In this document: piece by piece, positions 3,919 through 56,088 of the stretch
Layout: every line of letters starts with the position of its first letter
Numbering within the stretch: the stretch's first letter is position 1
DNA from: Candidatus Falkowbacteria bacterium
GTDB taxonomy: Bacteria; Patescibacteriota; Patescibacteriia; CAIXNZ01
DNA: 64,000 nt
Assembly (NCBI GenBank): GCA_963774955.1
Contig: CAVZGV010000003.1
Location: 320,771 to 384,770, forward strand
Reading direction: 5' to 3'
Translations under genes and position numbers: made by a program
Notes under the pieces: generated by a model
What the model saw: only the letters and a program-made list of their open reading frames with translations
Databases searched by the model: none
What the model was told of the DNA's origin: nothing

Positions 3919-4126
3919 TATAAAGGTCTCCCGATATCCCGGGGGATCTTTTAGTTTTAGGCTTGAAATTTTAGGGTAATTTTGATATAGTTTGTGTATT
4001 CGTAAACAGGGTAAAGGTAAGGAGGTTAGTTAGGTAAATAGTGGTTAGTGTTAAGTCCTATCGGTTTTTACTAAATACTATGCACTAAACCAACCTCTTA
4101 ACCTATTCACATTAGACAATCCAAAT

Positions 4127-8617: not shown

Positions 8618-8722
8618 GGCGAAAACGCCCTTTGTCATTCTGAGGAACCGAAGAATCTATGATGTCACAGATCCTTCGCTCCGCTCAGGATGACAGTGAT
8701 CCGACAAAGGGCGTTTTCGCCC
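8618..8722. mobile_element. MITE copy 1 of the GGGCGAAAACGCCC-TTTGTCAT family (~105 bp, terminal inverted repeats).
   Basis: Left end ggcgaaaacgccctttgtcattctgagg, right end gacaaagggcgttttcgcc, with an internal sub-palindrome. About 93% identical to the copy at 51249-51353. It lies 6 bp after the rdgB stop. Confidence 0.8.
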
Positions 8723-18785: not shown

Positions 18786-18877
18786 ACTAATAAATAATTA
18801 TCACGAATGTCACTAATAGCCATAAAAATCCGCGCGATTAGTGAGTATAAATTCGTGGTTCAGCTAACATATATATT

Positions 18878-19882: not shown

Positions 19883-19950
19883 AAATTGGGGCTTGGAAGT
19901 CTGGGCATAATTCGTGGAAATTGTTTATAGATATTGCTAAAATTAGATAA

Positions 19951-19995
19951 AATAAAAGCTTCTCCGCTTAACGAAGAAGCTTTTATTTTTAGGTT
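19951..19995 (+). terminator. Rho-independent terminator after secF.
   Basis: aaagcttctccgcttaacgaagaagcttt hairpin followed by tatttttagg. Confidence 0.6.
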
Positions 19996-20065
19996 TAATT
20001 TTGTGGCAGGTAAGATACTTGCATAAATGTAAACATTGGGATATAATACATCTGCCTATAAACTC

Positions 20066-20094
20066 TTGACATATATTTTGAGATATGTTATACT
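20066..20094 (+). promoter_or_regulatory. Consensus sigma70 promoter (TTGACA-17-TATACT).
   Basis: cTTGACAtatattttgagatatgtTATACTataga, ~75 bp upstream of CDS 20172. Confidence 0.65.
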
Positions 20095-20171
20095 ATAGAA
20101 TAATTAAAATAGGGTTTAAATGCGCTAATATTTGCATTTAATTTATTTATAAATTACTAACACCTACTAAT

Positions 20172-21248: not shown

Positions 21249-21268
21249 ACAATTATATACCAAAAAAA

Positions 21269-21300
21269 GAAACCTCCAAGCATTGTGAGGTTTCTTTTTG
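21269..21300 (+). terminator. Rho-independent terminator.
   Basis: gaaacctc-caagcattg-tgaggtttc followed by tttttgtttt. Confidence 0.65.
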
Positions 21301-21467
21301 TTTTCCCATGGCAAAAATGGTCAAAATTATGTATAATATATATAGAACCACAAAAGGTGGCACGAAAAAACACTAAAAGTAATTTAATATTGAAAATCAC
21401 GATAAAACACTTATTATTTTCGTGTTTTTCGTGATTATATTTTCATGGTTAATATTACATTCATTTT

Positions 21468-23234: not shown

Positions 23235-23276
23235 ATTAGTCAGCTTAGTTTTTAGTTATTAAATTTTAGTTATATT

Positions 23277-25562
23277 ATGTCTGAAGAATTAGTAAAAAAA
23301 ATACAGGACAGCGGGATTGCACCATTTGCAGTCACTACTTATCATAATAAAGAAAAAATTTTTGGCATTAAAACAGATGATCGTCGCCGTCATGTTTATC
23401 TCATCGGTAAAACCGGTATGGGCAAAACGACCCTGATTGAAAACATGGTTTATGCAGATATCATGTCCGGCCATGGCGTCTGTTATATTGATCCTCATGG
23501 TGATACCGCTGAAAAAATGCTGGAATGGATTCCGTCCTGGCGTATAAATGACGTGGTTTATTTTAATCCCGCTGACTTGGAATTTCCTATTTCCTTCAAT
23601 GTCCTGGAAAAGGTTGATCCCAAATATCGCCATTTAGTCTCTTCAGGCCTTGTCGGCGTCTTCAAAAAACTATGGGCCGAGTCTTGGGGCCCACGCTTAG
23701 AGTATATTTTGAGAAATGCGATTTTAGCGCTTTTGGAATATCCTGATAGCACTTTGTTGGGTATTAATCGTCTTTTGGTTGATAAGGAATATCGCAAAAA
23801 AGTCGTGGAAAAAATTCAGGATCCGGTTGTCCGTTCCTTTTGGGTGGATGAATTCCCCAAATGGAATGAGCGCGTTTTACAGGAAGTTGTGTCTCCGATT
23901 CAAAATAAAGTCGGTCAGTTTTTATCAACTGCCCTGATTAGAAATGTTGTCGGCCAGGTAAAATCGAGTGTAAATTTGCGCGAATTGATGGATACCCAGA
24001 AAATTTTAATTTTAAATTTGTCTAAAGGCAGAATCGGCGAAGATGCTTCAGCTTTAATGGGCGCGATGATGGTTACAAAAATACAGCTGGCAGCTATGAG
24101 TCGTGTGGATATCCCGGAAACTCAAAGAAACGACTTTTATCTCTATGTCGACGAATTTCAGAATTTCATTACTGATTCATTTGCCAATATTTTATCTGAG
24201 GCCAGAAAATATCATTTAAATTTAACTATTGCTCATCAGTATATTGAACAGTTGGGTGAAGTGGTTCAGCCGGCTGTTTTTGGTAACGTCGGAACTATTA
24301 TTGTTTTTCGTATCGGCGCGGCTGATGCTGAATTTTTGGAAACTGAATTTGCCCCCAATATCATCCCTGAAGATTTAGTTAATTTACCCAAGTATCACGT
24401 TTATTTAAAGTTAATGATTGACGGCGTTACCAGTGAACCATTTTCAGCCCGCGGTTTGCCCCCTGTATATACCAAATCCATGGGTAATGAAGAAAAGGTT
24501 ATCCGTGCTTCCCGGGAAAGATATACCAGACCCAGGGAAGTCGTGGAAGATAAGATTTACCGCTGGAGTTTGGGTGATAAAGAAATTGAGCGCAGAGAAG
24601 CTGATGCTGCTAAAAAAGCAGGTATCACTGTGGATGTTTTTGCCAAAAAGCAGGAAGATCGTCGTGATCAACCTAGAGACGGAGGTAGAGACTTTAGCAG
24701 AGATGGCGCTAGAGATAGTGGTAGAGATAGTGGTAGACAAGATAATCGGCCTCAGGCACCCAGAGCGCAGTTTTCCAGCCGACCCCAGGTACAATCCCAG
24801 GCAGTTAGTGCTAAGCCGGCGAATACCGCAGCCAAGCCAATGCATCCGGCGAAATGTGATAACTGCGGGGTAGCGATTGAAATTCCTTTTTTACCAGATA
24901 AATCACGCCCGGTCTTTTGCAAAGACTGTCTGAAAAAATCTCGCCGCGGTGAAATTAAAATGCAGCCGCAAGCCAGCGTTCAAGTCGCTGAATCAAGAGA
25001 AGAAACACCGACAATATCCTTAGCCCAATTAAATAAACAGACGTTTGATTTTAAGGGTCGTCCTGTTAGAGAAGTGAAAAAAGAGGAAAAAGGGCAAGCG
25101 GGGTTAAGAAAGGAGGAGCCAAAGGCAGAAAGACCAAGAATAGAACCGCCTCAGCTTAGAAGTGGCAAAGAAGTGGGAGAAGCTAAAGACGGGTTAAGAA
25201 GGGAGGCGCCAAAGACAGAAAGGCCAAGAATCGACCCCCCAGTCATTAAGCAACCTGAAACTAAAAAAATTGAACCCAGGCTTACTGTTCAAGCTGAGAA
25301 GAAAGAATCTGAAATTAAGGCTCCAGTTTCAGCCGCTGCTTCTAAAACAGTTGATTTTGATAAATTAATTGATTTTGTGGAAAAAAAACAGGAAGAATTA
25401 AAAGGAAAGATTGATAGTGAAAAGGCTCCGGCGCAGACTCCAGCTATAAAACCACAACAGGCAAAGCCTAATTCGCAGACAGCTTCGGTAGATTTATTGT
25501 CTCAATTTAGCAATGATTCAGATTCCAAAGAAATTAAGGCAGGGGAGGAAATAGAGTTGTAA
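23277..25562 (+). CDS. VirD4/TraD/TraG-like (T4 coupling-protein/HerA-like) P-loop ATPase with a C-terminal zinc ribbon and repeat-rich disordered tail.
   Basis: Walker A LIGKTGMGKTT and Walker B FYLYVDEFQNF. CDNCG..(x17)..CKDC zinc ribbon. RDGGRDFSRDGARDSGRDSGR and two copies of GLRKEEPKAERPRIEPP, the latter a ~50-nt tandem DNA repeat at 25098-25240. Confidence 0.6.
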   Translation: MSEELVKKIQDSGIAPFAVTTYHNKEKIFGIKTDDRRRHVYLIGKTGMGKTTLIENMVYADIMSGHGVCYIDPHGDTAEKMLEWIPSWRINDVVYFNPADLEFPISFNVLEKVDPKYRHLVSSGLVGVFKKLWAESWGPRLEYILRNAILALLEYPDSTLLGINRLLVDKEYRKKVVEKIQDPVVRSFWVDEFPKWNERVLQEVVSPIQNKVGQFLSTALIRNVVGQVKSSVNLRELMDTQKILILNLSKGRIGEDASALMGAMMVTKIQLAAMSRVDIPETQRNDFYLYVDEFQNFITDSFANILSEARKYHLNLTIAHQYIEQLGEVVQPAVFGNVGTIIVFRIGAADAEFLETEFAPNIIPEDLVNLPKYHVYLKLMIDGVTSEPFSARGLPPVYTKSMGNEEKVIRASRERYTRPREVVEDKIYRWSLGDKEIERREADAAKKAGITVDVFAKKQEDRRDQPRDGGRDFSRDGARDSGRDSGRQDNRPQAPRAQFSSRPQVQSQAVSAKPANTAAKPMHPAKCDNCGVAIEIPFLPDKSRPVFCKDCLKKSRRGEIKMQPQASVQVAESREETPTISLAQLNKQTFDFKGRPVREVKKEEKGQAGLRKEEPKAERPRIEPPQLRSGKEVGEAKDGLRREAPKTERPRIDPPVIKQPETKKIEPRLTVQAEKKESEIKAPVSAAASKTVDFDKLIDFVEKKQEELKGKIDSEKAPAQTPAIKPQQAKPNSQTASVDLLSQFSNDSDSKEIKAGEEIEL

Positions 25563-34763: not shown

Positions 34764-34866
34764 GCAAAAATGCCCTTTGTCTGTCGTTGTCATTCAGAAC
34801 AGTACAAAGAATCCAGGACTACATAGATTCCACGCTTCGCTCTGAATGACAAAGAGCATTTTTGCT
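34763..34866. mobile_element. MITE copy 3 (diverged TIR ggcaaaaatgccctttgtc).
   Basis: ggcaaaaatgccctttgtctgtcgttgtcattcagaac ... ctctgaatgacaaagagcatttttgc; begins at the fba stop. Confidence 0.7.
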
Positions 34867-38617: not shown

Positions 38618-38725
38618 GGGCGAAAACGCCCTTTGTCATGCCGACCGAAGCGGAGGCATCCCTAAGTTATTAAGGGATTTCTCGACTACGCTTGAAATGA
38701 CAATAGACAATGGGCGTTTTCGCCC
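38618..38725. mobile_element. MITE copy 4.
   Basis: gggcgaaaacgccctttgtcatgccgaccgaagcggagg ... gaaatgacaatagacaatgggcgttttcgccc. Confidence 0.8.
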
Positions 38726-45295: not shown

Positions 45296-46418
45296 GAAAA
45301 CGCTCTTTGTCATACCGGGTAAATGGTACCCAAACTGGTTGGTGAAAAGACAAAATTTCTGTTAAGGTTAGATTAAAATTGATACTTAATATTAAACTGG
45401 TTCAATATTATGAAAAAAAACTTGTCCAGATTGCTCCTCTAATAATGTAATTTTTTATGGCCAAAATGATTGCGGACGGCAAAGATTCAAGTGCGGGAAG
45501 TGCAATCGACTGTTTATTTTCCGCAATGCAAAGAATAAATTGAACCGCCAACTTAAATGGTTTAAATTATGGATAGCCGAAGGATATTCAGTCAGGCAAA
45601 TTTCGGGAATTAGCCACCACAGCAGGAAAACAATTAAGGGAATAATCAGTTATTGGCTCGCAAAATTACCGAGCCCTTTAAACGTACAAACCGGAATAAA
45701 ATATCTGCTTTTTGATGGTACATATTTCCACCGCATGAATTGCTTAATGCTGGCAATGAATAATGCCAATGGCCAAATCATCACAAATAGGTATTTAAGG
45801 CGTGAAAATTACTTTGCCGCCCTTGAGCTGTTCAAGGAGCTGTCAGATAAAGGAATCAAGCCTACAGCCATTACAATTGACGGTAATACTAGCGTAATTA
45901 GAGCCTTAAAGGACGCATGGCCGAATATCGTAATACAGCGCTGTATCGTTCATATCCAGAGGCAGGGATTATTTTGGTTAAGAATGCGTCCTAAACTGGA
46001 GCCATCGATACAATTACGCAAGATATTACTGGCGGTAACAAACATTAACAATTATCCGGAAAAACATAAATTTATTTCAGATTTTCATAAGTGGGAAAGA
46101 AAATTCGGCAAAGCGGTTTCAAGACTCGACTGTAACCACAAAGTCTTTAGTGATTTGCAAAGAACTAGAAGCTTAGTAATTCATGCCTTGCCCGACATGT
46201 TCCATTATTTAGATAATCCGAATATCGCCAAATCAACGAATAAACTTGAAGGATATTTTTCTCGTTTAAAAAGATTGTATCGCCAGCATTCAGGATTAAG
46301 CAAAGATAACAGAAACAATTACTTTAGCTGGTATATTCATTTCAAAAATCATTAATTCACCAACCAGGTTGGACCCCTTATACCCGAAATGACAAAAGAC
46401 AAAGGGCGTTTTCGCTCC
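45296..46418. mobile_element. IS1595-family-like insertion sequence (~1.1 kb); presumed autonomous parent of the MITE family.
   Basis: Imperfect ~45-bp TIRs: left gaaaacgctctttgtcataccgggtaaatggtacccaaactggttgg; the reverse complement of the right end is gagcgaaaacgccctttgtcttttgtcatttcggg..ccaacctggttgg. The ends match the MITE termini. Confidence 0.75.
45410..46355 (+). CDS. IS1595-like transposase (N-terminal zinc ribbon + DDE domain), with a frame break at an A8 run.
   Basis: The zinc ribbon CPDCSSNNVIFYGQNDCGRQRFKCGKCNRLF (45423-45515) is in frame with the ORF 45540..46355 but lacks an ATG. The ATG at 45410 (MKK) is one frame off across tgAAAAAAAAc. C-terminal ..TNKLEGYFSRLKRLYRQHSGLSKDNRNNYFSWYIHFKN is IS1595-like. 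Confidence 0.65.
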
Positions 46419-46428
46419 AATTTCATAT

Positions 46429-47583
46429 ATGCCCAAAGAAAAAGGACAACAAGATGCAGAAGCGCAGGACTTGGCTATGGCCAGGCGGGTTTTGGGTCAG
46501 GCTAAGGAATTGGATTTGACTGAACAGGAGAAAACAGAGCTAATGGAATTGATTAGTCAGGCCAAGGAAAAAGAAAATGCTAATAATTTGGCCGCAGCCA
46601 TAAAATTATACGGGCAGGCTAGGGACTTTATAAAAAATATTAAGGAGAAAAGTAATTACGATAAATTTGAGTGCTTGCAGTCCTGGGAAGCTCATAAGGG
46701 CGTTGCCTGGTCAGTTTTGTTAAGTTCTGACCAAAAGAAATTAATTTCCTGCGGCAGTGATAAGGCTGTCAGAGTTTGGGATAGAAAAACCGGTCAATGC
46801 GATAAAAGTTTAGAAATGCCGGAAGGTCATTGGGGTATTGTCAGGAGATTAAGACCAAGCAAAGACGGTGAACATTTTTATTCTGTCAGTAATGATGGTT
46901 CCTGTAAAATGTGGGATCAAAAAAACTGGCAGTGTGAAAAAACTTTTGAGCCAAACGAAGAAAATCAGCCAGTGTGCACGGACGTTATTGAATTGGATGA
47001 TAATATTTTAATTTCAACCCATCTTTCTCTTAAAATAAAATTATGGTCTAAAAAAAGCGAAGCTAATTCGGTTAGAGGATTGTTTGGAGTTAACGAGGTC
47101 TATGGAGGTATTAAAATAGGAGAAGATTTACTGGCATTATCAACAGATAGGGGGGTGGTAATTTATGACTTAGAAGCTCGTGGAGTTCCAAATATTTTAA
47201 ATAATGTTGCCTCGCAGGAAACAGCTATCTTAGAAAGTGCTGATAAAAAATATTTATTTGTTGGCGCTCCTATAATTAAACCCAAGGGTGAGGGCAATTT
47301 TGATTTGCAGATTTGGGATAAAGACGGCTGGGATCTAATTGCTTCTTTGCCCGGTCACGAAGATATTATCAGAAGTATTGTTCAAACCCGAGATGGAAAA
47401 CATTTGATTACCTGCAGCGATGACAAAACAGTTAAAGTCTGGGATATTGAACAAGAAAAATGCATAAAAACTTTTGACATGGAAGATCATGAACCCAGAT
47501 GTGTTATTGAAGCTGAAAATGGAGACATTATAACTACCGGCAGGGACGGAAAAATAAAGATTTGGGGAATAAAAGAAAAATAA
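46429..47583 (+). CDS. Family member 1: conserved N-terminal module + WD40 beta-propeller.
   Basis: N-terminus ..AQDLAMARRVLGQAKELDLTEQEKTELMELISQAKE..; WD40 repeats (..FECLQSWEAHKGVAWSV.., ..CGSDKAVRVWD.., ..DDKTVKVWD..). Confidence 0.8.
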   Translation: MPKEKGQQDAEAQDLAMARRVLGQAKELDLTEQEKTELMELISQAKEKENANNLAAAIKLYGQARDFIKNIKEKSNYDKFECLQSWEAHKGVAWSVLLSSDQKKLISCGSDKAVRVWDRKTGQCDKSLEMPEGHWGIVRRLRPSKDGEHFYSVSNDGSCKMWDQKNWQCEKTFEPNEENQPVCTDVIELDDNILISTHLSLKIKLWSKKSEANSVRGLFGVNEVYGGIKIGEDLLALSTDRGVVIYDLEARGVPNILNNVASQETAILESADKKYLFVGAPIIKPKGEGNFDLQIWDKDGWDLIASLPGHEDIIRSIVQTRDGKHLITCSDDKTVKVWDIEQEKCIKTFDMEDHEPRCVIEAENGDIITTGRDGKIKIWGIKEK

Positions 47584-47584
47584 T

Positions 47585-48820
47585 ATGAAAAAAAATATTG
47601 AACAACCCAAAGATGAGGTGCAGGAACTGGCCATGGCCAGGCAGGCTTTGGATAAGGTTAAGGAACTGGATTTGACTCCTGAGGAAAAAGAAAAAGTGAT
47701 GGCTATGATTGATAAGGCCAAGGAGCATGAACAGAACAAGGAGCTGTCAAAAGCCCTGAATGTATATAACGAACTTCTGCGGTTATTGAAAAACAAAGAA
47801 AATATCGGCAATTTAGAAAAGTTAGTTAAATATGGTGACTTTGAGATTTTGTATTCGCAGGCGCAGGTATTATTTGCCTTGGAGGAAGAGATTGCCAAAG
47901 TTAAGAATAGTGTTGATCCGCTGGTCCATTATTCAGAATTGGTAATCAGGCAAATACTTATCGATAAAGGGCTTAAAGTTGAAGCCGGAAATGTAATAAA
48001 ATTAAACGTTAGTCATCTTGACATAGCAACTTTGCCGGACTTAAAATCCTTAGAAAAACTGGAAGATTTAAACTGTTCGTATAATAAGTTATCTGTATTG
48101 CCAGAGTTAAAGACGTTATCAAAAATTAAAATAATAAATTGTTCTTGTAATCAGTTATCTGAATTACCGGATTTAAGCGCCTTAAAAAATCTTGATACTT
48201 TGTTTTGTGACTCAAATCATCTCACTGTAATGCAGGATCTAAGCGCTTTAATTAATCTTAAACGATTAAATTTAAGTATTAATTATTTTAGTGGTTTACC
48301 TGACTTGAGCCACTTGACTAAACTGGAATTTTTGGACTGTTCAAGGAATGAATTAATTTATTTGCCCGATCTTAAAGCCTTAAAAAAACTGGAACATTTA
48401 GAATGTAATAACTGCGAATTGGTAGGCTTGCCGGATTTTGAAGATTTAAAAAAAATAAGAATATTAAGCTGCAGTCACAATCTTTTGTCTTTCATCCCTG
48501 GCCTTAGTAAATTGGAAGATATTGAAGATTTGGATTGTTCAAATAATCTGATATTAAATCTTGACGACGTTAGTTCCTTGGAAACGCTTGTTAAGCTACA
48601 GATTGAAAATAATAAAATAACTAGTTTGCCTGATTTATCCAGGCTGGATCAACTGGAAGTTTTAAATTGTTCTCGAAATAAATTATCCATCTTGCCCAGA
48701 GATTTAGTCGGGTTAGAAGATCTTAAAGAAGTTTGGCTGGGAGGCTGTATAGTGAATAGGACTGAAACTGAGGAAGAATTTGAGGAAATTTTACCGGCAG
48801 GATGTGAAATATATTGGTAG
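47585..48820 (+). CDS. Family member 2: conserved N-terminal module + leucine-rich repeat domain.
   Basis: ..VQELAMARQALDKVKELDLTPEEKEKVMAMIDKAKE..; ~13 LRRs of type LxxLxxLxxLxCSxNxLSxLPDL. Confidence 0.8.
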   Translation: MKKNIEQPKDEVQELAMARQALDKVKELDLTPEEKEKVMAMIDKAKEHEQNKELSKALNVYNELLRLLKNKENIGNLEKLVKYGDFEILYSQAQVLFALEEEIAKVKNSVDPLVHYSELVIRQILIDKGLKVEAGNVIKLNVSHLDIATLPDLKSLEKLEDLNCSYNKLSVLPELKTLSKIKIINCSCNQLSELPDLSALKNLDTLFCDSNHLTVMQDLSALINLKRLNLSINYFSGLPDLSHLTKLEFLDCSRNELIYLPDLKALKKLEHLECNNCELVGLPDFEDLKKIRILSCSHNLLSFIPGLSKLEDIEDLDCSNNLILNLDDVSSLETLVKLQIENNKITSLPDLSRLDQLEVLNCSRNKLSILPRDLVGLEDLKEVWLGGCIVNRTETEEEFEEILPAGCEIYW

Positions 48821-48890
48821 TTTGGAAAAAAGTACGAGCCGCGGAGCGGCATTCCGCTGCGTGGAAAAGTCCGAATTTATAATAATTTTT

Positions 48891-50261
48891 ATGCCCAAAG
48901 AAAAAATACAAGCAGATAAAATTGAAGCTCAGGAACTGGCCATGGCCAGGCGGGTTTTGGGTACTGTTAAGGAATTGCCGATGTCTGAGGCTGAAAAGGC
49001 CAAGCTTATGGAATTGATTGATCAGGCAAAGCAATTGGAAACAGAAAATAAGTTGCATCAGGCCATTGTGGTTTATAATCAGGCAGCCGGTCTGATGCGG
49101 AAAATTAAAGCCAGAAATGAAAATCAGGTTAGAACCAATCCCAAGGAATCGTGGGACTGGCAGGTCGGAGAAAAATTATTGTTGGATGACGAAGGATTTA
49201 TTGGCCCAAAAGGCTTTGCTCAATTTGATACCGCGGTATTTACTACGGACGGAGAAACTGTTTTGTGTGAAGTAAGCGACCAATTCATCAATTGGCTGGC
49301 AAAGAATGGTAAAACAGCTGCTGAAACAGTCTTTAAAAGTAAACAACTTGTAGCCAGTAATGATGGGCAGCATTTTGCCGCATTAGTTTTGAATACTGCA
49401 GACGGCGATGAAGACTTTTATGAGGTCGTCACAGATAAAGGCAAAGGGATATATAAATCTTCTGAAGCTTGCAAAAAATTGATGTTCAGTCCTGACGGAG
49501 AAAAATTAGCAGTCTTTGTGAAGGATGAGGTTTCCAGCCCCAGTGACCAGTATTATAAAATTGTTGAAAACGGCCAATTGCTTTTTCCCTGGATTTATGG
49601 CGATCCTTCAGACCCCAAAGATTATCGCTTGAAAGATATAATCTATAGTCCTGATAGTCAGAAACGAGCAGCTATCATTCATGGGCTTGGCAGTGACTTC
49701 AGTGATGCAAATGAGGTTTCAGAGAGTATTGTAGTAGATGGCGATAAAAAGTGGCAACCACAAGCAGCGACTTTGAAATGGCCGGTTTATAGCCCTGATG
49801 GTGAAAAACTGGCAGTAGTAGACCGTGAAGGTCAGATTATGGTTAATGAAAAATATATTGAAATTCTTTCCGGGAAAAAAGCCCTGAGTCCGCCGGTTTT
49901 TAGCCCCAATGGAGAAAAGATCGCTTATGTTGTTAGCCTGGACCCGAGAAAAACAAGTTTTACTTTAGCTGAGGATGATAAAATCAAATGGGAACATTCC
50001 ATGTTTAAAGAAATACGCGATTTTGTTTATAGTGATGACGGACAAAGCATTGCAGCTGTGGTAATAAATCCAAGCGAGGAAGCAAACGAAATTAAAATTG
50101 CGGTCAACGGTATTAATATTGATGACGATGAATATATTAATGTTAAACATTTAACCTTCAGTCCTGATGGACAAAAGATTATGTATGTGGGACAAAAAGA
50201 CGACGGTAAATATTTTCGGATTGTCAAAGATGTCAGTGATTATGCAAAAATTCAGACATAA
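48891..50261 (+). CDS. Family member 3: conserved N-terminal module + PD40/TolB-like beta-propeller.
   Basis: ..AQELAMARRVLGTVKELPMSEAEKAKLMELIDQAKQ..; six (F/Y)SPDG(E/Q)K(L/I)A blades. The ORF extends upstream to 48780; start taken at MPKEKIQ. Confidence 0.75.
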   Translation: MPKEKIQADKIEAQELAMARRVLGTVKELPMSEAEKAKLMELIDQAKQLETENKLHQAIVVYNQAAGLMRKIKARNENQVRTNPKESWDWQVGEKLLLDDEGFIGPKGFAQFDTAVFTTDGETVLCEVSDQFINWLAKNGKTAAETVFKSKQLVASNDGQHFAALVLNTADGDEDFYEVVTDKGKGIYKSSEACKKLMFSPDGEKLAVFVKDEVSSPSDQYYKIVENGQLLFPWIYGDPSDPKDYRLKDIIYSPDSQKRAAIIHGLGSDFSDANEVSESIVVDGDKKWQPQAATLKWPVYSPDGEKLAVVDREGQIMVNEKYIEILSGKKALSPPVFSPNGEKIAYVVSLDPRKTSFTLAEDDKIKWEHSMFKEIRDFVYSDDGQSIAAVVINPSEEANEIKIAVNGINIDDDEYINVKHLTFSPDGQKIMYVGQKDDGKYFRIVKDVSDYAKIQT

Positions 50262-50266
50262 ATATA

Positions 50267-51241
50267 TTGGATAAATTTATGCGCCAAGAAAAAATACAAT
50301 CAAAAAGTGAACAGCAACAGGCACTGGCCATGGCCAGGCGGGTTTTGGGTCAGGCTAAGGAAATGAAATTGAATTCTGACCAGCATAAAAAAATGATGGG
50401 AATGATAGACAAAGCTCGAGGTTTTGAAGTCACAGGGGAGACACAAAAGGCTTTGCACGTATATTTGGCTTTGAAAACTTATTTAGAAGAAATTAAGAAT
50501 GGTCCCAAATTTACTTTCAGCGGAGTAGCTGATAGAACAAAAGATAATCATGAGGTGCTGTTATTTTTTGATGAAGAATTGGAAAAATCTAAGGCTTTTT
50601 ATGAGAATGAAGGGGTTGATTGGGTGGAATTCCCTGAGCAAATTATAATTACCCAGAGTCAAGAAGCCGAGATGAAACGTTGTATCAGAGAGTTTAGTTT
50701 TAATAAAATTATGATCATACCTGCTGGCTTGGCTGTTGATGCTGATGAAATGAATATACTTCATAGTTTAATGGGCAGACTATACCCGCCGACTAAATAT
50801 AATCCCAATTATACAAAATATGCAGGTACTAAAATTTTAGAAAAAAGGCAAAATTTGCGAATTGTTTTATATCGCAATCAGAAAGGTTTGGATGACTTGT
50901 ATCTGCAAACCAGGGGCAAATCTGCCGAAGAATTAATGGCCCCAGGTGGCTTAATGGATACTTTAGGGTTGGAAGGACTTTCTGAAGCTGAATTTTTAGT
51001 GCTACAACATCAGCATTTTTTGGATTTTCCTGCAGATTATATGTATATGGGAGATGAGGTTATGCTTTTAGGAAGTAATTTTATGAAAACTGACGAGGGG
51101 CATGAAATGGCAGTCAGCGCTTATTGGGATCTTTCAGGCACTCATTCACCCAAAGGATTAGTATTTGATGGCCGGCCTAAAAATATGCTTGGTTCCGGTG
51201 TCGGATGTCCGTTGGTTAAGACTTTTGAAATTAAGGATTAA
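50267..51241 (+). CDS. Family member 4: conserved N-terminal module + uncharacterised alpha/beta C-terminal domain.
   Basis: ..QQALAMARRVLGQAKEMKLNSDQHKKMMGMIDKAR..; the likely start is the Met at 50279 (MRQEKIQ). Confidence 0.7.
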   Translation: MDKFMRQEKIQSKSEQQQALAMARRVLGQAKEMKLNSDQHKKMMGMIDKARGFEVTGETQKALHVYLALKTYLEEIKNGPKFTFSGVADRTKDNHEVLLFFDEELEKSKAFYENEGVDWVEFPEQIIITQSQEAEMKRCIREFSFNKIMIIPAGLAVDADEMNILHSLMGRLYPPTKYNPNYTKYAGTKILEKRQNLRIVLYRNQKGLDDLYLQTRGKSAEELMAPGGLMDTLGLEGLSEAEFLVLQHQHFLDFPADYMYMGDEVMLLGSNFMKTDEGHEMAVSAYWDLSGTHSPKGLVFDGRPKNMLGSGVGCPLVKTFEIKD

Positions 51242-51248
51242 GGCTGAA

Positions 51249-51353
51249 GGGCGAAAACGCCCTTTGTCATTCTGAGGAACCGAAGAATCTGTGAGACACA
51301 GATCCTTCGCTACGCTCAGGATGACAGTGAACCGACAAAGGGCGTTTTCGCCC
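51249..51353. mobile_element. MITE copy 6 (~93% identical to copy 1).
   Basis: gggcgaaaacgccctttgtcattctgaggaaccgaagaatctgtgagacacagatccttcgctacgctcaggatgacagtgaaccgacaaagggcgttttcgccc. Confidence 0.85.
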
Positions 51354-51364
51354 AGATAAGAAAT

Positions 51365-52513
51365 ATGCTAAAAGAAAAAATACAACCTAAAAATGAATCA
51401 GCGCAGGCCTTGGAGATGGCCCGATTTGCTTTGGGTCGGGTCAAGGAGATGGATTTATCTGAGCAAGAGAAAGAAAAACTAATGGAATTAATTAGCCAGG
51501 CTAAAGCTAAAGAACTAAATAATGAATTGGGAGCGGCTTTAAAATTATATATCCAAGCCAAGGATTTTTTAAATAATATAAAAAAACAAAGTAAGTACGA
51601 TAAGTTCGAATGTTTACAGACGCTTGAAGGCCATGAAGACAGGGTAAATGCTGTTTTGGAAACAAGGGATGCTAAATATATTATTTCCGGCGGTTCAGAT
51701 AATAATATTATTGTTCGGGACAGGAATAGCGGCCAGCAGATTGAAATTTTAAAGGAACATAAAGGACTTATTCACGCGCTTAAAGAAACAGAAGACGGCC
51801 AATATATACTATCAACCAGTTATGACGGAACCATTAAAATGTGGGATAAAGAAACCTGGGAATGTGTTCAGACGTTTATCAGGAAAGAAGAACGCGACCG
51901 CGATAAGGTTGTTATGGATGTGGTTGAAATAGATGATCAGACTTTGGCTTCTATTAGTAATGCGGTTATTACAATCTGGGATAAGGAAACAGGGGAAGAA
52001 AAAGAAAGTCTTTATCCTGAAGGTATGGCAGGTACTTTTTATAGTCTTGAAAAAATTGCCAACAAAGAGTCATTACTTATAACAAGTGATCTGATCACCA
52101 GAATTTATAGCTTAACATCGAATGACTGGGATCTGGGTTTTGGCGAAGATACAAAAGGAAGTTCTGTAGCTAAGGAAAGTAATGACCATAAATTTATTTT
52201 TTATGTGACCTCTTATAATGCTGCCGAGCCTTACAAAATTCGAATGTGGAATCAGGATACCTGGGATGTTGAGGCTGAGTTTAAGGGGCACCAGAAAGAT
52301 GTTAAGGGAATGCTTCAGACTAAGGACGGCAAGCATTTAATCACCCTTGCCAATGACAAGACAATCAGGGTCTGGGATATTGCCACTCAGGAATGCCTTA
52401 AAGTTTTTGAACTGGATGATTTTGTTCCGACTTGCATCGCGGAATCTGCCAATGGTGACATTATTGTCGGCGGAGCAGACAAAACTATTAAAATTTTTGG
52501 TCAAAAAAAGTAA
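51365..52513 (+). CDS. Family member 5: conserved N-terminal module + WD40 beta-propeller (closest paralog of member 1).
   Basis: ..AQALEMARFALGRVKEMDLSEQEKEKLMELISQAKA..; ..FECLQTLEGHEDRVNAV.., ..NDKTIRVWD.. Confidence 0.8.
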   Translation: MLKEKIQPKNESAQALEMARFALGRVKEMDLSEQEKEKLMELISQAKAKELNNELGAALKLYIQAKDFLNNIKKQSKYDKFECLQTLEGHEDRVNAVLETRDAKYIISGGSDNNIIVRDRNSGQQIEILKEHKGLIHALKETEDGQYILSTSYDGTIKMWDKETWECVQTFIRKEERDRDKVVMDVVEIDDQTLASISNAVITIWDKETGEEKESLYPEGMAGTFYSLEKIANKESLLITSDLITRIYSLTSNDWDLGFGEDTKGSSVAKESNDHKFIFYVTSYNAAEPYKIRMWNQDTWDVEAEFKGHQKDVKGMLQTKDGKHLITLANDKTIRVWDIATQECLKVFELDDFVPTCIAESANGDIIVGGADKTIKIFGQKK

Positions 52514-52523
52514 CTATATAATT

Positions 52524-53582
52524 ATGTCTGAAAAAATTAAATCACAACAAACTAGGGAAAAATCATCTTTGGAAATGGCTAGAGCTACATTGGGCCGAGT
52601 CAAGGAGATGGATCTGACGCCGGAGCAAAAGGAAAAAATGATGCAGATGATTGACATTGCTAATCAGCATGAACAGGCAGGGGATAAGTCCAAGGCTTTA
52701 ATTGCCTACAATGAATTAAAAAAGTTTTTAGAGGAAATTTCCAAGCCGGATGAGGTTATTGATTACAATGGTTTGAGGATAAAAAAATCACAAGCTAAAT
52801 TTTTAGAAGATTTAGCTCGACAAAAGGCTGGATTTTTTAATACAAATGCTTATGAACAGTTTAGAGATGATGTAGTTAAGTTTGTTAAAGAGGTTGATGA
52901 TGATGGCAATATTTTGGCAATTGATTGCACTGGCCAGAATTTAATAGCCTTGCCAGAGTTACCGCCTAATTTAGAAAAATTAAATTGTTCCATGAATAGT
53001 AATCTTACTTCTTTACCACCTTTGCCTGACAGTTTGATTGAACTTGATATTTTGCAGTGTCAAATCGATGTTTTGCCTGAATTGCCAAAAGGATTGAAAA
53101 AACTTGATTGTACAGATACTGATATAACCAAATTACCATCTTTACCCCCGAATTTAGAATTTTTACATTGTGGCCAAAATCTGGGATTAAAATTTGATCC
53201 AGAAGAACCTTTACCGGCAAGTTTGATAGATTTTAACTGTTGGAATTGTAATTTAGATAAACTTCCTGATTTGCCCAAAGGTTTGAAAACATTAGACTGT
53301 CGATCCAATCGACTTACGGAGTTGCCGACCCTACCTGAAACTCTGGATGCTTTAATAGTAGATGGAAATATATTTTTTGAGTTGCCGTCATTGCCCAAAA
53401 ATATCAGAGTTATTTTTTGCAATAAAAGTCATTTGACAGATTTACCCCCGTTACCTAAAAATTTGCAAGCTTTGTATGCAGATCAGAATGCTTTTAGCCA
53501 AAAGACTATCGATGCCATTAAAGCCCATCCTAATTTTGACCCTGAAAATTTTAAATTTAAAAATCTGGAAGATTTTGTTTAA
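52524..53582 (+). CDS. Family member 6: conserved N-terminal module + YopM/IpaH-type LPX leucine-rich repeats.
   Basis: ..SSLEMARATLGRVKEMDLTPEQKEKMMQMIDIAN..; 20-22-aa repeats L(T/P)xLPxLPxxLxxLxCxxNx (..LIALPELPPNLEKLNCSMNSNLTSLPPLPDSLIELD..LPELPKGLKKLDC..). Confidence 0.8.
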   Translation: MSEKIKSQQTREKSSLEMARATLGRVKEMDLTPEQKEKMMQMIDIANQHEQAGDKSKALIAYNELKKFLEEISKPDEVIDYNGLRIKKSQAKFLEDLARQKAGFFNTNAYEQFRDDVVKFVKEVDDDGNILAIDCTGQNLIALPELPPNLEKLNCSMNSNLTSLPPLPDSLIELDILQCQIDVLPELPKGLKKLDCTDTDITKLPSLPPNLEFLHCGQNLGLKFDPEEPLPASLIDFNCWNCNLDKLPDLPKGLKTLDCRSNRLTELPTLPETLDALIVDGNIFFELPSLPKNIRVIFCNKSHLTDLPPLPKNLQALYADQNAFSQKTIDAIKAHPNFDPENFKFKNLEDFV

Positions 53583-53631
53583 TAAGTAATTGGTAATTTG
53601 TAATTAGTAAAAAGAAAATATTATTTTAAAT

Positions 53632-54465
53632 ATGATCATTGATTCTCACGCCCATATTACATTCAAAGAGTATGCCAAGGATTTACAGGACGTTATTAAA
53701 CGTTCTTTTGAGGTTGGCGTACAAATAATCAATGCCAGTAATAGTTTAGAGACAAGCAGGCAGGCAGTTGAACTGGCTGAAAAATATGACAATATGTGGG
53801 CGGTTGTGGGTTGTCATCCGGATGATTTGGAGGAAAATTTGTCCGCCAGAGGCGGATCCGCCCATGGCGGAGATATTGAAAAATATAGGCAGTTGGCGCA
53901 GTCAAGCAAAAAGGTTGTCGGCATTGGGGAAGTGGGGTTGGATTATTATCGCTTAGCAGAAAATGGTAAAGACACAAAAGCTTATCAAAAAGAAATTTTT
54001 ATGCAGTTTATTGATTTGGCGCAGGAACTTGATTTGCCCCTGGTTTTGCATTGCCGGGGAGCGAAGGATGATCCCTATTGCGCCTACGACGAAATTCTTG
54101 ATTTCCTAAAATCTAAAACCCAAAATCCTAAATCTGAAAGCCGTGGTGTCATTCATTGTTTCGGCGGTAATTTGGAACAGGCAAACAAGTTTTTAGATTT
54201 AGGTTTTTACATAGGCATTACCGGTATTGTGACTTTCAAAAATGCCAAGGAACTGCAGGCCATTGTTAAAGAAGTTCCTTTAGATAAAATTTTAATTGAA
54301 ACAGATGCGCCGTTTTTAGCTCCAGAGCCGTATCGCGGGCAAAGGAATGAACCGAGTTATGTAAAATATGTTTGTCAGAAAATTGCGGATTTGAAAGGAT
54401 TATCTTTTGAGGAAGTAGAATCTGCGACTTATAAAAATACCTGTAGGTTATTCAATCTTAAATAA
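53632..54465 (+). CDS. tatD: TatD-family metal-dependent DNase/hydrolase.
   Basis: MIIDSHAHI.., ..GEVGLDYY.., ..LPLVLHCR.., ..GIVTF.., ..ETDAPFL.. Confidence 0.8.
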   Translation: MIIDSHAHITFKEYAKDLQDVIKRSFEVGVQIINASNSLETSRQAVELAEKYDNMWAVVGCHPDDLEENLSARGGSAHGGDIEKYRQLAQSSKKVVGIGEVGLDYYRLAENGKDTKAYQKEIFMQFIDLAQELDLPLVLHCRGAKDDPYCAYDEILDFLKSKTQNPKSESRGVIHCFGGNLEQANKFLDLGFYIGITGIVTFKNAKELQAIVKEVPLDKILIETDAPFLAPEPYRGQRNEPSYVKYVCQKIADLKGLSFEEVESATYKNTCRLFNLK

Positions 54466-54516
54466 TGAACTAATACTGCTAATTTGCTTCTAATCTACTA
54501 ATAATTCATTAAAATT

Positions 54517-54966
54517 ATGGCAAAATTTAGGGATGATTTATTGTATAAAGAGTTGAGTTTTCAAATAGTAGGCATAATGTTTAACGTTTATAATGAGCTG
54601 GGATATGGATATCAGGAGAAATACTATCAGAAAGCAATCGAAAGAGCGCTTGAGGAATCGGGTATCAAATACCGCGAACAAGTACCTTTCAGAATAATAT
54701 TCAAACAAAGAAATATAGGGATATATTATTTAGATTTTTTAATTGATGATAAGATAGTCGTTGAATTAAAAGTCGGTAAAAAATTTGCTAAGAAAGATTT
54801 TGATCAGGTTAAGGGATATTTACATGCCTCTAATAAAAAATTGGCACTACTAATTAATTTTACGCCCCTAGGAGTTAAATTTTTAAGAGTAATAAATTTC
54901 GAAGATAAAATAACAGAAACATCAGCTGAATTAAAATTAAATAATTTACGTAAATTATTTAATTAG
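54517..54966 (+). CDS. GxxExxY-family protein (PD-(D/E)XK-like).
   Basis: GYGYQEKYYQ (G..E..Y motif); ~150 aa. Confidence 0.6.
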   Translation: MAKFRDDLLYKELSFQIVGIMFNVYNELGYGYQEKYYQKAIERALEESGIKYREQVPFRIIFKQRNIGIYYLDFLIDDKIVVELKVGKKFAKKDFDQVKGYLHASNKKLALLINFTPLGVKFLRVINFEDKITETSAELKLNNLRKLFN

Positions 54967-54999
54967 AAGATTAGTAGCTAATTAGTAAATTAGTAGCTT

Positions 55000-56088
55000 A
55001 TGACAAAAAGAATTGAACAACCTCAAAATGAACAATCTCAGGAGCTGGCTATGGCCAGGCAGGCTTTGGGTCGGGTTAAGGAAATGAATTTGACGCCGGA
55101 GCAAAAGGAAAAGATAATGGCTATGATTGACGAGGCCAAAGAGGCCGAAAAATCCGGTCAAAAATCTAAAGCTTTAAAGATTTATAGGGAGTTGAAAGAA
55201 TCTTTAGAGAAAATAAAGTCATCAGAAAGTCTGGAATCGTTTCAGAATAAGACAGTTGAATTTATTAATGAGGGTTCTAATAAATTTTCAGATCGACGAA
55301 ATATTGCCATGGCATTGGCCGGAATAGATTCTGACCAAGCTTGGGAATTAAGATCTAAAATTTTGGAAACAAGCTGGAAGGATGTTAATTTTTTAACGCA
55401 TGTCGGATATAGTTTGGCTGGATTAGATTCTCAAGCGGCCTGGGATTTGAGAACTAAAATCCGGGAAAAAGGAGCAGATATTCACATAAGTTTAATAGGA
55501 CTGGATTCTGATAAAGCCTGGCAGCTGCGGAGAGAACTTTTAGAAAAAGGCGCTGATAATTGGTCTATCATGGAGAGTTTAGCCGGATTAGATTCAGCCG
55601 AGGCTTGGGAAATGAGGGATAAACTCATGGAACGAGGAGCGCATAAAAACGCTTTAGTTTCTAGTTTGGTAGGGTTGGATTCGGATAAAGCCTGGAAAAT
55701 AAGAGAGGAGGTTCTCGAAGACAAGGATGAAACTAACAGCTTATATGACTTGGCTAAAAGTCTAATAGGTTTGGATTCAGCCAAGGCTTGGAGCATGAGA
55801 CAACAGCTTTTGGAAAAAGGATTAGAAAAACAATTTATTGTTGGATTGTTAGGCGGAGCAGACTCGGAAAAAGCCTGGGCAATGAGGGAGGAAGTTATAA
55901 TGAAAATATCGGAAGGTAATAATGTTGCTATGAGTTTAGACGGGCTGGATTCGGAAAGAGCCTGGGATATGAGAGCGGAACTTATTGAGCAAGGAGTGCG
56001 ATTTGATGATGTTGCCTTGGGTATTTATGGCGGTTATTCGATGGAAGCTGTGCGTAAGGCCAGACGAGATGAAATATTTAAAAGTTAA
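55000..56088 (+). CDS. Family member 7: conserved N-terminal module + eight tandem ~34-aa alpha-helical repeats (L.GLDS..AW..R..L.E.G).
   Basis: ..SQELAMARQALGRVKEMNLTPEQKEKIMAMIDEAKE..; repeats LAGIDSDQAWELRSKILE / LAGLDSQAAWDLRTKIRE / LIGLDSDKAWQLRRELLE / LAGLDSAEAWEMRDKLME / ... Confidence 0.75.
   Translation: MTKRIEQPQNEQSQELAMARQALGRVKEMNLTPEQKEKIMAMIDEAKEAEKSGQKSKALKIYRELKESLEKIKSSESLESFQNKTVEFINEGSNKFSDRRNIAMALAGIDSDQAWELRSKILETSWKDVNFLTHVGYSLAGLDSQAAWDLRTKIREKGADIHISLIGLDSDKAWQLRRELLEKGADNWSIMESLAGLDSAEAWEMRDKLMERGAHKNALVSSLVGLDSDKAWKIREEVLEDKDETNSLYDLAKSLIGLDSAKAWSMRQQLLEKGLEKQFIVGLLGGADSEKAWAMREEVIMKISEGNNVAMSLDGLDSERAWDMRAELIEQGVRFDDVALGIYGGYSMEAVRKARRDEIFKS

Follow-up and report, generated by a model that had tools for sequence, protein, structure and literature searches.

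The window (the whole 64,000-nucleotide stretch analysed) contains, at positions 46429 to 56088, an array of exactly seven co-directional genes on the + strand that have a ~78-aa N-terminal module in common. The seven open reading frames reported in the earlier note, with starts at 46429, 47585, 48891, 50267, 51365, 52524 and 55000, are all present on that strand; the start of paralog 4 may be either the TTG at 50267 or the ATG at 50279, and those of genes 3 and 6 are internal ATGs within longer ORFs, a placement consistent with the conserved MPKEK/MSEK N-terminus. Stop codons lie close upstream of most of the seven starts, and paralog 2 begins 1 nt past the end of paralog 1. The genes, together with the elements beside and within the array, are as follows.

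45296..46413, + strand: insertion sequence (IS) with a Mutator-family transposase (45540-46355; Transposase_mut E 1.4e-7) and inverted termini at 45296 and 46413; flank, outside the system
46429..47583, + strand: paralog 1, module (46429-46662; module profile E 5.5e-26) plus WD40 propeller (WD40 E 9.9e-30), 384 aa
47585..48820, + strand: paralog 2, module (47585-47818; E 1.6e-28) plus 22-aa internalin-like LRR (LRR_4 E 9.4e-27), 411 aa
48891..50261, + strand: paralog 3, module (48891-49124; E 9.6e-25) plus PD40-type beta-propeller (PD40 E 3e-11), 456 aa
50279..51241 (alternative TTG start 50267), + strand: paralog 4, module (50279-50512; E 2.4e-28) plus alpha/beta domain, 320 aa
51253..51349, no strand: MITE between paralogs 4 and 5, with termini common to the IS; outside the system
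51365..52513, + strand: paralog 5, module (51365-51598; E 2.5e-28) plus WD40 propeller (WD40 E 1.3e-28), 382 aa
52524..53582, + strand: paralog 6, module (52524-52757; E 3.4e-30) plus LPX-type LRR (LRR_4 E 7e-14), 352 aa
53632..54966, + strand: two unrelated genes within the array, tatD (53632-54465; TatD_DNase E 4.9e-84) and a PD-(D/E)XK_3 gene (54517-54966; PDDEXK_3 E 9.8e-31)
55000..56088, + strand: paralog 7, module (55000-55233; E 4.6e-33) plus eight ~34-aa helical repeats, 362 aa

The IS, the MITE, tatD and the PD-(D/E)XK_3 gene, previously taken to mark an accessory locus, are thus all there, but the IS and MITE occur genome-wide and do not serve as markers of this locus. The MITE has three further copies or part-copies elsewhere in the window, including those at 8621-8718 and 38622-38721, and is therefore not specific to the cluster.

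Over their first ~78 residues the seven paralogs align with a mean column identity of 58%, and 14 positions are invariant (M1, L16, M18, A19, R20, L23, K27, E28, M40, I43, A46, E50, A58 and Y62). Pairwise identity is 34-62% within the module as against 15-25% past it, the WD40 pair (37% past the module) being the exception, which bears out the proposed architecture of one conserved N-terminal module with interchangeable binding domains. A module profile run against the six-frame translation of the window recovered exactly seven copies (E 1e-24 to 5e-33), the next-best match having E = 3.7. The module is uncharacterised, as had been claimed: it matched no family in Pfam, NCBIfam or PADLOC and gave no significant match in the PDB. 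It is a three-helix bundle in which a conserved, polar N-terminal tail (MP-K/E-E/Q...) is followed by one helix and then a TPR/MIT-like helical hairpin, and it resembles only generic TPR/PPR/MIT hairpins, at sub-threshold similarity for TPR/MIT, and designed three-helix bundles. The single helix carries L-x-M-A-R in the window's lineage (M-A-R being invariant in this subgroup), and the hairpin carries a family-wide signature, A..AE..G...A..(L)Y; conserved positions are kept between subgroups with <30% identity.

The C-terminal domains assigned in the earlier note stand up: paralogs 1 and 5 carry WD40, paralog 2 an LRR, paralog 3 PD40, paralog 4 an alpha/beta domain of unknown type, paralog 6 an LPX-LRR and paralog 7 eight helical repeats. 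The LRR of paralog 2, a protein with 12 cysteines, matched the internalin A model (E 2.6e-19), that of paralog 6 matched the SspH2 LRR model (E 1.7e-29), and the propeller of paralog 3 matched the TolB and TmcD propeller models weakly; each ~34-aa repeat of paralog 7 follows the pattern G-[LIA]-D-S-x-x-A-W. The C-terminal domain of paralog 4 matched no Pfam family, and the AF2 model of this paralog had a pLDDT of 76. Homology suggests that this domain may have a lectin-like fold; fold searches did not recover one. All seven paralogs lack a Sec signal peptide, in agreement with the initial description, and also a membrane segment (maximum 19-residue hydropathy 1.13, N-termini strongly polar), and three of them contain 9-12 cysteines; the module proteins probably work in the cytoplasm.

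A module profile search covering 1.84 billion representatives returned 61 matches, ~48 of which had one strictly N-terminal module followed by unrelated C-termini, and the strictly N-terminal position holds in well over 100 proteins. Close homologues are annotated Candidatus Parcubacteria. One related genome has at least 42 distinct module copies in the retrieved loci (12 loci), mostly in tandem and in arrays of up to 11; most of these copies lie far from the core genes described below and adjoin housekeeping genes. The module is thus present in other genomes and is not a trivial coiled coil confined to this one, an outcome for which the earlier note had allowed.

In relatives, module genes directly adjoin a conserved core trio, whose members are an AAA_5 ATPase of the MoxR type, a protein that combines HExxH with vWA, and a protein of 150 aa; many independent lineages have a module gene immediately beside the gene for the ATPase or for the 150-aa protein. 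The gene order is AAA_5, module plus domain, Avd/TR/RT, HExxH-vWA, 150-aa, module plus domain in L020/L021. In L019/L010, AAA_5, vWA and 149-aa stand in that order, preceded by two module genes and followed by four, and in L022 a fragment of the 150-aa gene is followed by a module gene. Among 50 metagenome loci found by the ATPase alone, a module gene was directly adjacent in 12 of the 15 informative unfused ATPase clusters compared with none of the 5 fused ones (hypergeometric p = 0.0036). All of the ATPases have a Walker A motif, and the unfused ones end in a conserved C-terminal tail (variants of ...LK..ILDLGIPEKH.KIIMES); the vWA partners have an N-terminal HExxH domain and a C-terminal vWA domain, and HExxH and the MIDAS motif D-x-S-x-S were found in 13/13 of them. 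The HExxH region was not recognised as any peptidase family, and no module was detectable in the ATPase, vWA or 150-aa proteins.

The core-adjacent module proteins carry WD40, LRR and the paralog-7 repeat, with E values down to 1e-71 against the window proteins. WD40 module proteins whose genes immediately adjoin AAA_5 in L057 and L061 share 30-31% identity (E 1e-30 to 1e-41) with the C-terminal part of paralog 1, and the WD40 module protein encoded immediately after AAA_5 in L057 shares 34% (E 2e-52) with paralog 5. For the C-terminal part of paralog 7, identity reached 43-45% (E 1e-68 to 1e-71) to core-adjacent module proteins in L061, L059 and L070, which are encoded immediately after AAA_5, immediately after the 150-aa gene, or immediately before AAA_5. 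The trio is absent from the 64-kb window, and none of the ATPase or 150-aa matches lay on the window genome's own 565,549-bp contig, so the machine is only putative in the window organism; a sister genome with window-type modules has an ATPase (P0126) and a 150-aa protein (P0084) on a 294-kb contig with at least 10 module proteins.

Alignments show that, in other lineages, the post-module domains are joined covalently to the C-terminal end of the ATPase, without a module. Residues 34-457 of the L023 ATPase align at 64% identity with the 465-aa L020 ATPase, and residues 499-749 match residues 74-321 of P0031, the part just past the module (E 6e-27); residues 98-398 of P0046 match the C-halves of the 757-790-aa ATPases P0094, P0096, P0099 and P0103 (43-45% identity, E 1e-62 to 1e-81). 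One module protein is a proven target of a diversity-generating retroelement (DGR): the L020 variable repeat (4186-4311) and template repeat (4669-4794) have 20 aligned mismatches, with A in the template at 19 of them. Paralog 4 is 31% identical over 224 aa to the second DGR target of L020 (tblastn, E 2e-26), and its alpha/beta domain is, by homology, a member of a family that is DGR-diversified or ATPase-fused in relatives; neither a template repeat nor a reverse transcriptase was found within the 64-kb window. Comparison of strains shows that C-terminal domains have been exchanged exactly at the module boundary, L055 and L057 showing 100% identity along 2036 bp that run through the ATPase gene and into the following gene for ~278 nt, the part that encodes the module, and being unrelated beyond.

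We favour, with confidence somewhat above even, the reading that the module is a docking adaptor that plugs interchangeable sensor or binding domains into a cytoplasmic MoxR-vWA machine, and we read the seven window genes as a putative satellite array of plug-in sensor subunits for it. The module would tether the ligand-binding domains non-covalently to a Patescibacteria-specific cytoplasmic machine composed of the MoxR-type AAA_5 ATPase, the HExxH/vWA-MIDAS partner and the 150-aa protein, and would thereby stand in for the covalent link of the ATPase-fused forms. The simplest binding site would be the conserved C-terminal tail of the unfused ATPase, comparable to the binding of an MIT domain to a short helical motif, although the vWA/MIDAS site or the 150-aa protein could serve instead. 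The L-x-M-A-R helix is not conserved in the module subgroup most often found beside the ATPase, so the docking surface may differ there or sit in the hairpin. Ligand binding by the variable domain would then be relayed as a signal via the ATPase/vWA pair. The earlier note's broad idea, a docking module that bears variable cargo, is supported, but its suggestion of a shared secretion domain serving a host-directed adhesin or effector repertoire is not: in relatives, gene adjacency, the ATPase fusions and DGRs link the module to the MoxR ATPase, HExxH-vWA and 150-aa proteins, and nothing links it to export.

It is unlikely that the module is instead a self-associating adaptor, like Death-like domains or effector-associated domains (EADs), that joins paralogs in mixed oligomers and does not dock on the ATPase. 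Such a role would suit a small, non-enzymatic, all-helical terminal domain that has many paralogs per genome, within arrays and elsewhere, is associated with MoxR-vWA operons and matches the EAD description in PMC7159879; however, the EAD-defining copy on a core component was sought in the ATPase, vWA and 150-aa proteins and not found, the fusion/fission pattern indicates the ATPase as the partner, and the cargo consists of binding domains, not enzymatic effectors.

We regard as improbable a shared export or targeting domain (e.g. via a type IV coupling-type ATPase) that delivers host-interaction adhesins or effectors to the surface or host cell. The cargo behind the strictly N-terminal module is variable, fast-evolving and of kinds common in effectors (SspH2-like LPX-LRR, internalin-like LRR), the type IV system of Patescibacteria has no known substrates (PMC12102498), and the TraD/VirD4-like ATPase and membrane partner at 21468-25562, to which attention had been drawn earlier, have homologues in L016 and L012 at a distance of 2-3 kb from module genes. 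This proximity is nevertheless of little weight because coupling-protein homologues number about two per Patescibacteria genome (PMC12102498), and when 12 loci contain at least 42 module genes, nearly everything will have one close by. The missing signal peptide, the 9-12 cysteines in three paralogs, the fusion of the same cargo domains to a soluble AAA+ ATPase in other lineages, and steady neighbours that are MoxR/vWA genes, not secretion genes, also argue against export.

The module could conceivably be a pro-region or handle that is captured by the vWA MIDAS and cut by the HExxH domain, with the ATPase-driven machine maturing or releasing the C-terminal domains. In favour of this quite improbable scheme are the invariance of the HExxH and MIDAS motifs in the 13 vWA partners, the capture of extended peptides by vWA domains of MoxR systems (PMC7159879), and the conserved polar tail and invariant M-A-R in this subgroup, while the unrecognised peptidase family, the lack of a cleavage site conserved between subgroups and the fused forms, which need no such processing, speak against it. 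That the charged, helical module, with its database similarity only to generic hairpins and designed bundles, is a functionless cap or compositionally biased coiled coil inherited by tandem duplication is very improbable given the persistence of conserved positions across divergent subgroups, the strict N-terminal placement, the retention of the module while C-terminal domains swap for unrelated folds, and the non-random adjacency to the ATPase.

A close parallel to the docking adaptor reading is found in the MoxR-vWA 'ternary' conflict systems with effector-associated adaptor domains (Kaur, Burroughs, Iyer, Aravind 2020; PMC7159879), which likewise combine a MoxR-clade AAA+ ATPase, a vWA protein and a third conserved component, are tied to DGRs, couple many proteins to the core through small terminal helical domains (up to about 20 paralogs per genome), and, in other genomes, carry these domains as direct fusions on a core component itself. 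In contrast, the gene order here is ATPase, module protein, vWA, 150-aa protein with a different third component (no VMAP-C family was detected), the vWA protein has an N-terminal HExxH region, not C-terminal effectors, the cargo consists of binding scaffolds, not enzymes, and the hosts are tiny-genome Patescibacteria, which were omitted from the statistics of that survey; no core component has a module copy, so coupling here would be heterotypic. Another is the group of CPR DGR targets whose C-type-lectin variable domain is joined to an AAA ATPase (Paul et al. 2017, in the summary given by PMC10907252; the 'UVR4 / Midasin' class of Wu et al. 2018, PMC5758913). The long ATPases here (751-796 aa) have this architecture and are homologous in their C-terminal halves to what follows the module in module proteins, whereas the window family is a split form in which the variable domain exists as a protein of its own and has acquired the module; the module has since extended to proteins with WD40, LRR, propeller or helical-repeat domains, none of them DGR-diversified; no description of this split form and spread was found in the literature searched. 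In the Thiohalocapsa DGR 8 / clade 5A loci a MoxR-like ATPase likewise lies immediately upstream of the DGR target, which has an N-terminal extension with no recognised domain, is predicted to reside in the cytoplasm and has been interpreted as an antigen sensor (PMC10907252), but these loci belong to another phylum and lack a paralog array with non-lectin cargo; the likeness drawn here is one of layout.

The MIT domain (PF04212), with which the single TPR hairpin is grouped here, is like the module a three-helix bundle of similar size. MIT is the recurrent best sub-threshold sequence match of the module, and the contact proposed here is of the type by which MIT domains dock AAA+ systems onto short helical motifs. 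The module scores, however, do not exceed 19.7 bits against a Pfam threshold of 30, the match pairs only module helices 2-3 with MIT helices 1-2, and it is the cargo, not the ATPase, that carries the module. F-box families (FBXW / FBXL / FBXO) place a short N-terminal helical docking motif before WD40, LRR or other recognition domains and thereby provide one core machine with many interchangeable receptors; the likeness is an analogy only: sequence similarity is absent (no F-box match at E up to 0.1), the core machine differs and nothing here implies a ubiquitin system. The weakest step is the biological role, which, by analogy with the described MoxR-vWA conflict systems, may be surveillance of invaders or another sensing task. 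The binding domains would most likely serve a cytoplasmic AAA+ machine and not a secretion or surface system.

Seven co-directional ORFs lie on the + strand of the window within 46429-56088, as the earlier note had described, and an alignment of the seven paralogs revealed 14 invariant positions in their first ~78 residues, the unnamed three-helix domain referred to here as the module. A profile search of the six-frame translation of the 64-kb window recovered exactly seven module copies (E 1e-24 to 5e-33), and the next best match had an E of 3.7. The parts that follow the module are unrelated among the paralogs, except that the WD40 paralogs resemble each other and the LRR proteins do so weakly; they consist of two WD40 domains, an internalin-like LRR, a PD40 propeller, a domain without a family, an SspH2-like LPX-LRR and, in paralog 7, eight helical repeats of the G-L-D-S-x-x-A-W type, with Pfam thresholds passed by WD40 (102 and 99 bits), LRR_4 (93 and 52 bits) and PD40 (43 bits). 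Recent gene conversion as the source of the N-terminal likeness was set aside because module identity is only 34-62% at the protein level. The array is tightly packed, with intergenic gaps of 1 to 124 nt, is broken up by a MITE and by tatD and a PD-(D/E)XK_3 gene, both unrelated, and is bordered by a Mutator-type IS.

Features of the array and of related mobile elements in the window
46429-56088, + strand, array of seven module genes
45296-46413, Mutator-type IS
8621-8718, 38622-38721 and 51253-51349, copies of the MITE family
34766-34781, part-copy of the MITE family
53632-54465, tatD inside the array
48821-48890, 70-nt gap between paralogs 2 and 3

The ~100-nt MITE family has the same terminal inverted repeats (GAAAACGCCCTTTGTC) as the IS, nine terminus matches being seen in the window versus 0.07 expected by chance; because the family also occurs at 8621 and 38622 and in part at 34766, it carries little information on the array locus in particular. 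No plus-strand terminator between array genes was found in a promoter/terminator scan, and Rfam and tRNA scans of the window gave no matches. The gap between paralogs 2 and 3 holds a GC-rich hairpin (GCCGCGGAGCGGC) that is terminator-like on the minus strand only. PADLOC defence models returned only repeat-level WD40 matches in the window and a match of tatD to the QatD model (E 8e-22), which probably reflects family-level similarity only, since other Qat components were not seen.

AF2 placed the module helices at residues 9-28, 33-51 and 55-79 (pLDDT 75), and the full-length model of paralog 4 contained the same three helices followed by a separate alpha/beta domain. The predicted fold is a three-helix bundle, as in the MIT domain (PF04212), which was the recurrent best sub-threshold Pfam match in several module proteins (13.8-19.7 bits, E 0.0009-0.06, below the 30-bit gathering threshold). 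Helices 2-3 were matched weakly in profile searches by VPS4 MIT domains (VPS4A chains in the PDB, E 0.007-0.07), by the N-terminal TPR of PICH (PDB sequences, E 8e-4) and by the K-A-G-x-L-x-x-A-L-x-L-Y signature of designed PPR/TPR proteins (PDB sequences), while fold searches with the module returned generic three-helix bundles only. In view of these weak helix 2-3 matches and generic fold matches, the module is a new sequence family whose hairpin resembles those of TPR and MIT domains; it belongs to neither family. The earlier view that it was uncharacterised holds, as no Pfam (E up to 0.1 in the model set searched), NCBIfam or PADLOC family covers it, and nothing relevant was found in the literature on the module or on CPR repeat-protein families. 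F-box, dockerin, LXG/WXG, double-glycine leader and Tat motifs were rejected as identities, with no family matches and an unfitting sequence.

When 1.84 billion cluster representatives were scanned in full by HMMER with the module profile, 61 matches resulted, about 48 of them real, each with a single module that was always N-terminal. The window-like subgroup (L-x-M-A-R-Q-x-L-G-R-V-K-E-M-D-L-T-P-E) has at least 8 copies in the window's own genome (565,549-bp contig) and at least 10 in a sister genome (294,070-bp contig), and also occurs in a MAG annotated as Candidatus Parcubacteria; the window-type profile had no matches in species-representative genomes or JGI metagenomes. A second subgroup (S-L-E-S-Q-L-x-M-A-R-P-R-R...) was found among 185,579 species-representative genomes in GCA_964411255.1 only, where a six-frame profile search of 12 loci detected no fewer than 42 distinct module proteins, encoded in tandem arrays of up to 11 co-directional genes; this count covers only part of the roughly 1-Mb assembly. 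The third, more divergent subgroup (M-P-E-Q-F-E-K-F ... P-I-E-L-T ...) came from metagenome loci. M1, A46, E50 and A58 are the only positions invariant in all subgroups, with L31 and Y62 close to invariant; the first two subgroups alone have the M-A-R helix. C-terminal classes recurring across subgroups were LRR variants, WD40, WG-like beta repeats, the paralog-7 repeat and the paralog-4 alpha/beta domain.

GCA_964411255.1 is titled 'uncultured Gammaproteobacteria bacterium', and its retrieved loci point to Patescibacteria instead; the label looks wrong because of their GC content of 32-36%, a homologue sharing 70% identity with the TraD-like ATPase of the window, and 42 or more module genes, present in this assembly only among the species representatives. 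The related small genome of loci L001/L002 encodes, at 17752-20703 and a few kb from module genes, a 983-aa protein that contains a major-vault-protein shoulder domain (PF11978).

The genes beside the module in relatives were read from the contig (L020) of P0028, a module protein with a paralog-4-type domain. The operon there runs in the order AAA_5 ATPase (465 aa), P0028, Avd, template repeat and reverse transcriptase, a 657-aa vWA/CobT_C protein, a 150-aa protein without a Pfam family, and a second module protein that is 77% identical to P0028. Homologues of the ATPase, vWA and 150-aa genes (52-68% identical) lie mid-array among module genes in GCA_964411255.1, and a fragment of the 150-aa gene stands directly upstream of the module-protein gene P0033 in a third lineage. 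In relatives the ATPase matches AAA_5 (E 1e-16) and its partner matches vWA/CobT_C; Walker A is kept in all ATPases, an N-terminal HExxH and the MIDAS D-x-S-x-S in all 13 vWA partners examined, and the unfused ATPases share a conserved C-terminal tail. As an independent test, JGI metagenomes were scanned with the ATPase alone, not the module, which gave 50 loci; these were annotated by BLAST and the module profile, the ATPases were clustered at 90% identity, and clusters with enough flank were kept. An immediate module-gene neighbour was present in 12 of 15 unfused ATPase clusters (11 downstream, 1 upstream only) versus none of the five in which the ATPase is fused to a paralog-4-type domain (hypergeometric p = 0.0036), and a module gene directly followed the 150-aa gene in six of ten informative lineages. 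Module proteins adjoining this core carry WD40, LRR and the paralog-7 repeat, and among the window's proteins paralog 7 shares 43-45% identity with them (E about 1e-70), while the WD40 paralogs 1 and 5 share 30-34% (E 1e-30 to 1e-52). The core trio is absent from the 64-kb window, and searches for ATPase and 150-aa homologues found none on the large contig of the window genome; the sister genome has both.

One and the same domain was observed in two states, joined to the ATPase or as a separate protein with a module encoded beside the ATPase. In locus L023 (Candidatus Magasanikbacteria) the ATPase has 751 aa; residues 34-457 share 64% identity with the 465-aa L020 ATPase, and residues 499-749 match the module protein P0031 from residue 74, the exact module end (E 6e-27). 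A second domain subtype behaved alike, with residues 98-398 of the module protein P0046 being 43-45% identical to the C-terminal halves of 757-790-aa ATPases (E down to 1e-81). The module profile had no significant match in ATPase, vWA or 150-aa proteins (best E 0.036), and the simplest reading of the fused and separate states, together with this absence, is that the module takes the place of a covalent connection. The fused form belongs to the "UVR4/Midasin" class (PMC5758913) and, according to the part of PMC10907252 that cites Paul et al. 2017, is the commonest DGR target architecture reported in CPR bacteria. Two strains also differ precisely at the module end: loci L055 (3370-5711) and L057 (2141-4734) share 2036 bp at 100% identity, a stretch that runs through the ATPase gene and on over the module-coding start (~278 nt) of the gene after it. 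Past the module boundary they have nothing in common: a 318-aa protein of unknown type is encoded in one strain and a 402-aa WD40 protein in the other. The boundary is hence a genuine recombination joint in nature.

P0028 is a DGR target. Its 3' end and the repeat upstream of the reverse transcriptase in L020 form a 126-nt VR/TR pair with 20 mismatched aligned positions, 19 of which have adenine in the template, the DGR signature, and both Avd and RVT_1 adjoin the pair. The complete DGR (Avd, 126-nt template repeat, reverse transcriptase; L020 1935-9682) is an insertion that separates the module gene nearest the ATPase from the vWA gene, and it has two candidate target genes, the 3' end of the second also matching the template. 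Paralog 4 was not identified as a target: the window contains no template repeat, reverse transcriptase or Avd, and the last ~60 residues of paralog 4 do not align with DGR targets. By homology its C-terminal domain may be lectin-like (C-type lectin / FGE-sulfatase fold), although fold searches with that domain did not recover such a fold. Avd-like genes (23S_rRNA_IVP family) occur near module arrays of a related genome (L019 12443-12832; L014 1202-1552), with no reverse transcriptase in the 20-kb loci, and may be remnants of a lost DGR or part of a DGR elsewhere in the genome.

Among described systems, the module resembles the effector-associated domains (EADs) of MoxR-vWA/GTPase conflict systems (PMC7159879) in being a small, non-enzymatic terminal domain on many different proteins with several paralogs per genome (seven copies in the window, at least 42 in one related genome), but differs from them in that no copy sits on an AAA_5, vWA or 150-aa core protein. 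The relatives share with the VMAP-type ternary system (PMC7159879) a MoxR-clade ATPase and a vWA protein with intact MIDAS, a pair absent from the window itself; the VMAP, MoxR, vWA order with a VMAP-C domain protein was not found in relatives, where the order is ATPase, module gene, (DGR), vWA, 150-aa, module gene.

Of the earlier note's ideas on function, that of a modular dock plus cargo stands, whereas the reading of the paralogs as secreted adhesins or effectors does not, as an export signal is absent and the neighbours are not secretion genes. Hydropathy analysis found no signal peptide or membrane segment in the seven paralogs (mean of the first 30 residues -0.45 to -1.2; no 19-residue window above 1.13), a longer N-terminus has no room upstream of the starts, and three paralogs have 9-12 cysteines. 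The window does encode a TraD/VirD4-like ATPase (23277-25562), and homologues of it lie near module genes in two related loci; this linkage was judged non-specific because there are about two such genes per Patescibacteria genome (PMC12102498). The ATPase, which has a CxxC-x17-CxxC zinc ribbon and a long low-complexity tail, forms a conserved three-gene set with a sigma70-region-4 + HARE-HTH protein and a 588-aa family-less membrane protein (window 20172-25562; L016 3355-8101; L012 14403-16589); the window and L016 versions of the ATPase share 70% identity, and L012 has a paralogous pair. Elsewhere in the window, SecD (16734-18785) has two PpiC-type peptidyl-prolyl isomerase (rotamase) domains inserted after the N-terminal P1 segment and ahead of the P1 head, an unusual fusion of a foldase to a translocon accessory protein, and secA (3364-6841) may be split or frameshifted, the ORF at 5381-6841 encoding the second half of SecA only (part of the P-loop domain, wing/scaffold and SEC-C) with short ORFs upstream at 3364-5433. 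As a caution, eukaryote-like repeat proteins in symbiont genomes should not be taken for secreted effectors by default.

We observed the family, its position, its neighbourhood, fusion and fission, DGR targeting of one member and cassette exchange, and this real, unnamed domain family is best explained as the docking adaptor of a CPR-specific MoxR-vWA/DGR-associated system. In this reading, the module would dock the variable domain onto the ATPase, whose conserved C-terminal tail is the obvious candidate site if MIT-MIM contacts are taken as the model; alternative docking sites would be the vWA/MIDAS site or the 150-aa protein. The module proteins would act in the cytoplasm, and the ATPase/vWA pair would pass on the binding of a ligand by the variable domain. 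Described MoxR-vWA systems whose lectin domains are DGR-diversified have been read as invader sensors (PMC7159879; PMC10907252), and by analogy the purpose here may be the same, which is the least certain step. A broader proposal, which we consider tentative and on balance doubtful, is that Patescibacteria with ~1-Mb genomes possess a cytoplasmic receptor repertoire in which a MoxR AAA+/HExxH-vWA machine is served by dozens of sensors swappable via an MIT-like docking module, some germline-encoded (WD40, LRR, propellers and helical repeats, with cassettes exchanged at the module boundary) and others hypermutated by a retroelement (putatively lectin-like).

The module offers a way into a large group of hypothetical proteins and connects these with a defined machine, so that "unknown WD40/LRR proteins in symbionts" become a testable claim, namely that they dock on a MoxR ATPase. 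Gene numbers in CPR bacteria are very small, and one relative devotes at least 42 genes to this family. If the proposal is true, such a repertoire may take several percent of genes, a figure extrapolated from the copies in about a quarter of that one assembly, and may serve against phages or in dealings with a host. It would be a prokaryotic counterpart of innate receptor families combined with somatic diversification. The family also points to an evolutionary route by which a germline repertoire can supplement a hypermutated sensor through a transferable adaptor.
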